Positions 27,548 through 29,868 of a stretch of DNA of 44,742 bases are shown piece after piece; the stretch's first letter is position 1; each line of letters opens with the position of its first letter. The DNA is from a virus: IMG/VR virus record IMGVR_UViG_3300037474_000089, one strand, 5' to 3'. Both the position numbers and the translations under genes were made by a program. The notes below the pieces were generated by a model that was given only the letters and a program-made list of their open reading frames with translations, searched no databases and was not told where the DNA came from.

Positions 27548-27714
27548 TTATATATCTAGTGAGTTTACGCATAGCAGAAAGAAATGAAATTATAGTAGAA
27601 GCTTTTCTTTCGAAAGTAAAAGCGGAAAATCGAGTTAATCAATTCAATTCAGGTATGGGCTGTTCAAGCTCATTTCCAAAAGCGCAGTATGTAGAAGTCG
27701 AGGTAATAGAATGA
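27544..27714 (+). CDS. Hypothetical 56-aa protein
   Basis: Start MIIYLVSL at an ATGA overlap. Coupled to the methyltransferase gene. Confidence 0.4.
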   Translation: MIIYLVSLRIAERNEIIVEAFLSKVKAENRVNQFNSGMGCSSSFPKAQYVEVEVIE

Positions 27715-28460
27715 AACACCTAGATATGTTTAGTGGAATAGGAGGTTTTGCATTAGCGGCACAATGGGCTGGAATTGATACTATTGGGTTTAGTGAGATA
27801 GACAAATTCTGCTGCAAAGTTTTAAAGAAGCATTGGCCTCACATCACTAACTACGGCGACATACGTCAAATAGAGGAACTTCCTCATGTAGATTTGATGA
27901 CAGGCGGATTTCCATGTCAACCATTCAGTAGTGCAGGAAAGAAAAGGGGAAAGGAAGATGAACGATATTTGTGGCCACAATTCTACAGAGCAATCAAACT
28001 CTCTAAGCCAACTTGGATTGTTATCGAAAATGTTAAGGGAGCAGTTGACCTGGTACTCGAAACAATCTGTTCTGATTTGGAAGCACAAGATTACGAAGTG
28101 CAATCGCTCATTATACCAGCTTGTGGCACCGATGCGCCGCATAGACGGGAAAGGTTATGGATTGTTGCCCACTCCAACAGCAAGCGAGTTAACTTCAGGT
28201 TCAGTGATTGGGAAGAACGACGTGTACAAAAAGACCCGTACGGGGACATGGCGCAAATACAATCAGAATGGGAAGAACTCAAGCCTAACTCTTGGTCGTC
28301 TTATGATTTTGAGCAATACCTATCCTTTAACGCCTTATCTCATGGAGATGGTTATGGGATACCCAATAGGTTGGACAGAGGTAAATCTTTAGGCAACTCT
28401 ATAGTACCTCAAGTAATATTTCCTATATTAAGATTGATAAAAGTAGTTGACAATCTATAG
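27711..28460 (+). CDS. DNA (cytosine-5)-methyltransferase (compact, 249 aa). See the finding on methyltransferase-like motifs in the +1 frame.
   Basis: Motif I is DMFSGIGGF, IV is GGFPCQPFS, VI is ENVKG, VIII is PHRRERLWIVA and X is LGNSIVPQV. Confidence 0.88.
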   Translation: MKHLDMFSGIGGFALAAQWAGIDTIGFSEIDKFCCKVLKKHWPHITNYGDIRQIEELPHVDLMTGGFPCQPFSSAGKKRGKEDERYLWPQFYRAIKLSKPTWIVIENVKGAVDLVLETICSDLEAQDYEVQSLIIPACGTDAPHRRERLWIVAHSNSKRVNFRFSDWEERRVQKDPYGDMAQIQSEWEELKPNSWSSYDFEQYLSFNALSHGDGYGIPNRLDRGKSLGNSIVPQVIFPILRLIKVVDNL

Positions 28461-28475
28461 AAGACGATCTATAGT
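28439..28475 (+). promoter_or_regulatory. Promoter P2: conserved cassette AAAAGTAGTTGACA-ATC-TATAGA-AGACGA-TC-TATAGT
   Basis: The -35 is 28447-28452 and the -10 is 28470-28475. It is embedded in the last codons of the methyltransferase gene (KVVDNL*). Confidence 0.6.
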
Positions 28476-29031: not shown

Positions 29032-29868
29032 ATGTTTAAAAAAGCTATAATCGGAGTTTCCTCTGTTTTAGTATGTGCGACAATGACAGCTTGTACAAAA
29101 GTACCAGCGGGTCATAAAGGCGTTATTGTCAATTTGTATGGTTCTGATAAAGGAGTTTCAGAAGAAACGGTTGGTGTGGGTAGATATTACTTAGGTTGGA
29201 ATAAAGAATTATATTTGTTTCCAGTTTTTCTTCAAAATTACACGTGGACTGGCGAAGAACAAATAACCATGCAAACTTCAGAAGGACTTTCTATATCGGC
29301 AGATGTTGGTGTTACTTATAATATTAGACCAGAAAATGTCAGCAAAGTTTTTCAAAAATACAGATTAGGTATTGACGAAATAACCCATACCTTTCTCCAC
29401 AACATGGTTAGAGACGCAATGAATCAAGTGTCTTCTACTATGACAGTCGAACAACTTTATGGTGAAAAGAAAGAGCAATTTATCATAAAAGTAAACAACA
29501 TTGTAAAAGAAGAATGTTTGGACGTTGGAATTGACATGGACAAAATCTATCTTATTGGTTCCTTTAAATTACCAGACAATGTCGTAAATTCAATAAACGC
29601 TAAAATTCAAGCAAGTCAAAATGCAATGAAAGTAGAAAATGAAGTTGCCACAGCAAAAGCAGAAGCTTTAAAAACAGTGGTAGTAGCAGAAGCTGAAGCA
29701 CAACGTATTTTAATTGACGCTAAAGCTAGAGCCGAATCTAACAGATTACTATCTGAAAGTTTAACCCCCTCATTTATTCAATACCAAACATTGCTTAAAT
29801 GGGATGGTAAATTACCTCAGATTACAGGTTCTTCCACTATACCTATGATCAACTTAAAGAGTAGTTAA
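29032..29868 (+). CDS. SPFH/Band-7 (prohibitin/HflC-like) lipoprotein
   Basis: Signal plus lipobox-like sequence VLVCATMTAC. SPFH core is VPAGHKGVIVNLYG...GLSISADVGVTYNI...VRDAMNQV, followed by a C-terminal coiled coil AEAEAQRILIDAKARAE. Confidence 0.8.
   Translation: MFKKAIIGVSSVLVCATMTACTKVPAGHKGVIVNLYGSDKGVSEETVGVGRYYLGWNKELYLFPVFLQNYTWTGEEQITMQTSEGLSISADVGVTYNIRPENVSKVFQKYRLGIDEITHTFLHNMVRDAMNQVSSTMTVEQLYGEKKEQFIIKVNNIVKEECLDVGIDMDKIYLIGSFKLPDNVVNSINAKIQASQNAMKVENEVATAKAEALKTVVVAEAEAQRILIDAKARAESNRLLSESLTPSFIQYQTLLKWDGKLPQITGSSTIPMINLKSS

Follow-up and report, generated by a model that had tools for sequence, protein, structure and literature searches.

The cytosine-5 DNA methyltransferase locus analysed in this study is probably a nested-gene alpha/beta enzyme, in which two chains are encoded by overlapping genes of the same strand; our estimate for this reading is a probability of roughly 0.7. 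The locus lies in a stretch of 44,742 nucleotides of DNA from an uncultured phage (IMG/VR record IMGVR_UViG_3300037474_000089), and this whole stretch is referred to here as the window. As judged from the sequences, both frames are open, both are subject to frame-specific purifying selection, and the order alpha(N)-beta-alpha(C) is collinear with that of a single-chain relative, and these points are established by the present analysis. From them we infer the separate initiation of beta, the assembly of the two chains, the activity and the biological role of the enzyme.

In the proposed arrangement, alpha would form the catalytic large domain with motifs I-VIII, followed by a tether of about 60 residues with little sequence constraint and by the motif X helix, which would fold back onto the AdoMet-binding domain of alpha. 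Beta would supply what alpha is without, namely a conserved beta-hairpin, one or more modules of the LLPTP type at the target-recognition position and motif IX. By the precedent of M.EcoHK31I, alpha and beta would assemble into one active enzyme.

Reading frames and motif content

The initial annotation had described frame 0 as open over the whole alpha gene with motifs I, IV, VI, VIII and X, and all of these coordinates hold (Table 1). The five motifs (FxGxGG, PCQ, ENV, RxR and GNxxxP, respectively) are found on one chain, alpha. This chain matched PF00145 with 165.8 bits (cut-off 22) over residues 1-186 only and TIGR00675 with 140.9 bits (cut-off 100.65) up to about residue 189. Since the Pfam match is restricted to residues 1-186, frame 0 is without a recognisable motif IX, as had been pointed out earlier, and the motif-IX-like sequence is present solely in the +1 frame. 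Moreover, between its motifs VIII and X alpha has neither a motif IX recognisable by Pfam nor a target-recognition domain that is folded in the AlphaFold model.

In the +1 frame, the previously reported GLLPTPTASE element from 28159 and the stretch LTPYLMEMVMGYPIGWTE ending at 28380 were both recovered, and the frame is open even earlier than had been described, over 27901-28392, directly after the TGA at 27898-27900 (ORF reading). The motif-IX-like stretch contains MGYPIGWT, and the same bases read GIPNRLDRGKSLGN in frame 0 against MGYPIGWTEVNL and then a stop in the +1 frame. Beta, as predicted from ATG 27958, begins with MNDICGHNSTEQ, and its hairpin segment at 28053-28142 ends in LIWKHKITKCNRSLYQLVAP. 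The +1 product obtained no family match in Pfam or NCBIfam; a search with PF00145, the check that had been proposed for all frames, thus picked out alpha and left the +1 product unmatched, yet the latter is aligned by tblastn and phmmer. In PHROGs, the phrog_363 profile spans the whole of alpha and beta matches phrog_1008 (E 2.6e-11); these are two separate families, both of them labelled DNA methyltransferase.

The relation of the two chains to an ordinary enzyme was seen in the comparison with P0223, a single-chain protein of 589 aa. The segments follow one another along P0223 in the order alpha 4-191 (E 3e-31), beta 69-115, beta 113-144 and alpha 219-246. Beta 69-115 aligns to P0223 237-283 with 55% identity over 47 aa (E 4e-15), beta 113-144, which contains motif IX, aligns to P0223 496-527 (E 8e-5), and alpha 219-246, which contains motif X, aligns to P0223 557-584 (E 1e-4). 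By this collinearity, beta corresponds to the part of an ordinary enzyme that separates motif VIII from motif X, and alpha to the rest. The resemblance of the +1 elements to those of phage-type C5 methyltransferases, pointed out at the start, is borne out, as beta aligns to the PTP and motif IX regions of P0223.

Table 1. Features of the methyltransferase locus, in positions of the window
Feature	Position	Strand	Frame and remarks
Alpha gene	27711..28460	+	Frame 0; 249 aa; ATG 27711 to TAG 28460; C5-methyltransferase large-domain chain with motifs I, IV, VI, VIII, X
Motif I, FSGIGG	27729	+	Frame 0
Motif IV, GGFPCQ, with catalytic Cys	27903..27920	+	Frame 0; the open +1 frame starts at 27901, two bases before the motif
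Beta alternative start	GTG 27931	+	+1 frame; ORF listed as 27931-28392
Purine-rich run AGAAAAGGGGAAAGGAAG	27940..27957	+	GKKRGKE in alpha; Shine-Dalgarno-like, AAGG-type match 5' of ATG 27958; putative role
Beta gene	27958..28392	+	+1 frame; 144 aa; likely start ATG 27958, stop TAG 28390-28392; wholly inside alpha; predicted small-domain chain with hairpin, PTP module and motif IX
Motif VI, ENV	28026	+	Frame 0
Doubly constrained zone	28053..28142	+	Alpha motif VII-VIII (DLE..IIPACGTDAPH) over the beta hairpin (YSKQSVLIWKHKITKCNRSLYQLVAP)
Motif VIII, HRRERLWI	28140..28163	+	Frame 0
GLLPTPTASE module	28159..28188	+	+1 frame; one to four copies in relatives
Alpha linker between motifs VIII and X	28174..28355	+	Frame 0; open, but evolves as the shadow of beta
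Motif-IX-like stretch LTPYLMEMVMGYPIGWTE	28327..28380	+	+1 frame; shares bases with GIPNRLDR of alpha
Motif X, GNSIVPQV	28392..28415	+	Frame 0; its first base is the last base of the beta stop TAG

Homologues and distribution of the two-frame layout

Homologues of the frame-0 protein are about 250 aa long and align end to end with 50-89% identity, with Q173, Q184, W187 and W195 invariant; the closest relatives (P0001-P0003) share 74-89% identity. The +1 peptide (28147-28389) obtained 302 matches with E<=1e-3, of which 68 had E<=1e-10, among 1.8 billion representative proteins (phmmer), and its best match in phage genomes had an E-value of 2e-11 (tblastn). The initial annotation had expected that end-to-end homologues of frame 0, together with an absence of significant hits for the +1 translation, would speak against coding in two frames. 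The homologue evidence is split on this point: the end-to-end homologues exist, but the +1 translation also has highly significant matches.

The tblastn matches in the phages Lilo (Paenibacillus) and BS-TP4 (Bacteroides) fall within the CDS annotated as methyltransferase, in its +1 frame, and the two-frame structure is therefore present there too. In BS-TP4 the annotated frame-0 middle looks low-complexity, and the +1 frame has three PTP modules and GFPPDWT. In Paenibacillus phage Shelly (L083, NC_041909.1), RefSeq annotates both frames, at 324-1361 and 508-1212; gp55 is the DNA-cytosine methyltransferase and gp56, in the +1 frame, is entered as 'g55 internal gene', whereas most other records annotate a single frame. 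A search of the literature for a description of this layout as a phage-wide feature found none.

For a wider comparison, 80 IMG/VR loci were picked by similarity of the catalytic core, and the roughly 80 metagenomic loci reach down to about 35% protein identity. The two-frame layout with both frames open was seen in about 60-73 unrelated IMG/VR phage loci, and 83 loci were used for the count of frame-0 openness. In every locus with locatable motifs the assignment is the same: I, IV, VIII and X are read in frame 0, whereas G[FY]PxxW and the one to four copies of [LW]PTP are read in the +1 frame. Of the 83 loci, 78-80 have no frame-0 stop as far as motif X. The comparison of orthologs that had been suggested therefore shows related phages with the same two frames, both of them open. 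Ten loci were removed by the filter. Five of them fit the layout, two run off the end of their contig, two (L006 and L008) have a frame-0 stop and one (L025) is M.AquI-like; the frame-0 result is biased by the filter only to a slight degree.

Some members of the family depart from the common layout. In L006 (about 642-646) and L008 (about 1098-1102), a single frame-0 stop is found between motifs VIII and X, which would leave alpha without motif X; these loci may be pseudogenes, errors or another split form. In L025 (IMGVR_UViG_3300030107_006646, about 650-1465), the frame-0 ORF ends 46 codons past motif VIII, and the +1 ORF bears both the PTP module and motif X. Further, in the proteins P0132 (230 aa) and P0145 (237 aa), the motif I region is joined straight to beta-type sequence from the motif IV position, and motifs IV-VIII are absent. 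The beta-type part contains ..SHAKTS.. in P0132 and ..DSPAKT.. in P0145, and continues in the form ..SGMMRNG..LLPT..GWT; on its sequence this arrangement points to additional frame variants in the family or to gene calls that are mixed.

Stop codons and selection in the two frames

The density of stop codons was compared between the frames across the loci. In the +1 frame it was 0.035 per codon from motif I to IV, zero from IV to VIII (0 of 5187 codons), 0.0035 from VIII to X and 0.081 from X to the end. The corresponding values in the +2 frame were 0.081, 0.063, 0.068 and 0.053, and avoidance of particular k-mers as the source of the depletion was ruled out by this normal +2 density. When the synonymous codons of frame 0 were shuffled, 78+-5.6 stops were expected in the +1 frame between motifs IV and VIII, against none observed. 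Likewise, shuffling of the synonymous codons of the +1 frame gave an expectation of 219+-11 frame-0 stops between VIII and X, again against none observed. In each of the 60 loci measured, the open stretch of the +1 frame begins ahead of motif IV. In the window itself, synonymous shuffles keep the +1 frame open from IV to VIII in 3% of the cases and frame 0 open from VIII to X in 0 of 200, which agrees with the earlier remark that two open frames are unusual here. The comparative layout and the stop depletion together exclude sequencing error, recent indels and chance.

Mismatch rates were obtained from pairwise nucleotide alignments among loci, split by frame-0 codon position, and were also computed in ten-codon bins. 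For positions 1/2/3 the rates were 0.215/0.130/0.447 from motif I to IV, 0.249/0.168/0.429 from IV to VIII, 0.316/0.133/0.190 in the middle (VIII to X) and 0.174/0.098/0.437 from X to the end. In the flanks position 3 varies most, which is the usual signature of coding in frame 0. In the middle the highest rate falls on frame-0 position 1, equivalent to position 3 of the +1 frame, and the middle is therefore selected as +1-coded sequence. The ten-codon bins place the switch in selection about ten codons past the start of motif VIII and its reversal exactly at motif X, in whose bin the frame-0 substitution pattern is back (0.12/0.04/0.50). By these rates, the conservation of frame 0 across 28170-28380 appears to be largely a shadow of selection on the +1 frame. 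The frame-0 residue facing the Trp of beta is L, V or M only (NTG codons).

Constraint on the +1 frame was seen before motif VIII as well. Over codons +50 to +79 counted from motif IV, distant loci have a +1 identity of 0.33-0.46, compared with 0.21-0.24 after synonymous shuffling. In one bin of this segment the +1 identity is higher than the frame-0 identity, and the frame-0 position-3 rate of the segment is down to 0.28. From these identities, amino-acid constraint on the +1 frame is already present some 30 codons ahead of motif VIII. Over the 50 codons that directly follow motif IV, the +1 frame shows stop avoidance only, and its amino-acid conservation is no greater than that of the +2 control. 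A region-wide shuffle test of the +1 frame from IV to VIII gave a nearly equal excess in the +2 control, and only the binned version localised the signal. As far as substitution patterns can tell, both frames are under purifying selection and hence both are translated. The dual coding that the initial annotation had listed among its explanations is in this way supported by the stop depletion and by the frame-specific substitution patterns.

Initiation of beta and structural models

Beta would be initiated at a start codon of its own, most likely ATG 27958, which follows the purine-rich run AGAAAAGGGGAAAGGAAG. A +1 ATG is present at the aligned position in 40 of 60 loci; the other 20 are without it and would need other starts.

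AlphaFold models alpha with confidence over residues 1-157 and over the motif X helix (232-248) and gives residues 158-230 a pLDDT below 50, with an alignment of 20 rows only behind the prediction; the alpha middle is thus modelled as unstructured, which is supporting evidence and not proof. In the model of beta, the hairpin (28053-28142) is the most confident part with a pLDDT of 80-95, and the C-terminal half is confident too. Comparison of the beta model with the PDB (Foldseek) and of the alignment A2 profile with PDB sequences gave nothing meaningful, an isolated extended subunit being a poor query.

Alternative explanations

The main surviving rival to the two-chain reading is a double programmed frameshift, which we disfavour and consider unlikely. 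According to it, ribosomes would shift by +1 after motif VIII (28145-28160) and by -1 back near 28378-28392, giving one canonical chain with motifs I-VIII, TRD, IX and X. The reading spliced in this manner is collinear with single-chain relatives such as P0223, and a canonical-looking chain results. A GFPxxW placed 21 codons before GN fits the usual spacing between motifs IX and X, and the relatives having this placement would obtain that spacing from the shifts. The metagenomic protein P0126 (227 aa) has alpha motifs I-VIII fused in frame to the beta frame, at the junction of HRRDR with FGLLPT. It ends after GWTELNH, without motif X, and is the sole datum resembling a frameshift product; an indel of one base or a fault in assembly may account for it.

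The two-chain reading is favoured because frame 0 is kept open through the middle, with no stop past the proposed shift in 78-80 of 83 loci against 219 stops expected, and a frameshifting gene has no need of this. A second reason is that the +1 frame is already open ahead of motif IV, a long way 5' of where any shift could take place (60 of 60 loci; 0 against 78 stops), and a third is that its constrained segment of 30 codons upstream of motif VIII would never be read by a ribosome shifting after VIII; the rival needs none of these features. Between motif VIII and the first PTP module there are 10 to about 100 codons, and the position of the +1 stop ranges from -15 to +96 codons around motif X; judged from these widely varying junction positions, a conserved shift site was not seen. 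In the window, the motif VIII strand LWIVA would be cut off by the shift. To our knowledge, there is no precedent for two efficient frameshifts in one gene. The recoding from frame 0 to +1 and back that had been put forward at the outset is accordingly disfavoured, as both frames are kept open, constraint on the +1 frame sets in well before the proposed shift and no zero-frame stop is present.

It is improbable, in our view, that beta is a real nested protein which does not complete the methyltransferase, for example an independent regulator or DNA-binding protein, in which case alpha would either work by itself or have no activity. Selection on the +1 frame shows translation only and not function, and beta-type proteins have been called as stand-alone proteins in metagenomes (P0124, P0128 and P0133). 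On the other hand, the PTP modules and motif IX are the very elements found between motifs VIII and X of single-chain enzymes and missing from alpha, and in the M.EcoHK31I precedent both chains are needed.

Far less credible is the explanation that frame 0 encodes the only protein and that the +1 similarity is a passive shadow of frame-0 conservation. The end-to-end homologues with 50-89% identity, the four invariant residues and the coverage of alpha by phrog_363 would all be in agreement with it. Against it stand the middle, which varies most at +1 position 3, the absence of stops over thousands of +1 codons, the NTG-only codons opposite the beta Trp and the predicted lack of structure in the alpha middle. 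Least tenable of all are two compensating indels, by error or recent mutation, in an ordinary single-frame gene (a pseudogene or an assembly artefact): short homopolymers do occur at both junctions (GGGAAAGG and AAATCTTT), but this proposal of the initial annotation is refuted by a two-frame layout that is conserved in dozens of distant phage loci, among them the independently sequenced Lilo, BS-TP4 and Shelly and about 80 metagenomic loci, with frame 0 held open by selection.

Genomic neighbourhood and implications

The methyltransferase gene adjoins a DNA polymerase gene and a lipoprotein gene (PHROGs), the latter encoding the downstream 278-aa protein at 29032-29868 (phrog_200 'lipoprotein', E 4e-74). 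No nuclease gene was recognised in the list of ORFs within about 1 kb on each side. A phage enzyme without an adjacent nuclease would probably methylate the DNA of the phage itself and so evade restriction by the host. A promoter-like sequence (TTGACA-17-TATAGT, 11 of 12 matches) is located at 28447-28475 over the stop codon of alpha. The octamer ATCTATAG occurs twice there, at 28453-28460 and 28467-28474, and its second copy includes the -10 hexamer. On its sequence, 28447-28475 may be a putative promoter of the small genes from 28513 on.

A broader reading, in which we place about as much belief as doubt, is that the whole recognition half (hairpin, PTP modules and motif IX) is a separate +1 specificity subunit across the phage family, that alpha reads the same DNA only as a stop-free tether to motif X, and that the single-chain, AquI-like and nested forms interconvert by one-base indels. 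If this is true, the overlap of 144 to about 400 codons would be among the longest conserved same-strand overlaps in phages, and such genes would be missed systematically by annotation. The locus should carry two gene annotations, since the one frame given by standard gene callers loses either the recognition subunit or the catalytic core. It is also a clear-cut natural example of dual coding over a long stretch, with one frame dominating selection in some segments and the other frame elsewhere, and it can serve as a test case for methods that detect overlapping genes. Further, if beta alone sets the specificity, the phage enzymes would be natural two-part methyltransferases.

Comparison with known systems

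The chains of M.EcoHK31I have about 309 aa (alpha) and 176 aa (beta), and those of the window locus are similar in size, with 249 aa for alpha and 144-163 aa for beta. M.EcoHK31I, from E. coli HK31, recognises YGGCCR and is an alpha/beta C5-methyltransferase described by Lee, Kam and Shaw in 1995 (PMC2836561, PMC3404938). Its beta gene is placed wholly inside the alpha gene in a different frame, alpha contains motifs I-VIII and X, beta contains motif IX, and both chains are required; internal methionines can also act as starts of beta, and the predicted target-recognition domain is placed in alpha (PMC2836561, PMC3404938). The enzyme has been used as a platform for targeted methylation (PMC2836561). 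The phage locus is likened to it by layout: in both, beta is nested on the same strand in another frame, with motifs I-VIII and X in alpha and motif IX in beta. Unlike in M.EcoHK31I, the stretch between motifs VIII and X of the phage genes is selected in the beta frame, the PTP modules belong to beta, and in alpha this stretch resembles a tether free of constraint. Moreover, the phage copy is an orphan gene and not a member of a restriction-modification pair.

The two genes of M.AquI are adjacent and overlap only slightly. M.AquI (CYCGRG) is a two-subunit heterodimer, split in the variable region between motifs VIII and IX, with motifs IX and X in the small subunit (PMC3404938). The phage enzyme resembles it in having two chains divided in the VIII-IX variable region, whereas its motif X is on alpha and its beta is fully nested; the relative L025 does have the AquI-like layout. 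With single-chain phage enzymes such as P0223, the locus has in common the catalytic core, the LxPTPxAxD modules, the LNPxWVExLMGxPxGWT form of motif IX, the NRVDRLKAIGN lead-in to motif X and the order of these elements. In contrast to those enzymes, which are encoded in one frame, the middle of the window gene is displaced to +1 and overlaps motif VII-VIII and the motif X lead-in of alpha.

In the Rz/Rz1 pair of phage lambda, a second gene is likewise nested wholly in the +1 frame and the two products cooperate, and Rz1 is short. The nesting is similar in the present case, but the overlap is much longer (144 codons in the window, reaching about 400 in relatives), and what it joins are the two halves of a single ancestral enzyme. 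Among the systems compared, the locus is most likely an instance of the known but rarely recognised architecture of the M.EcoHK31I type.
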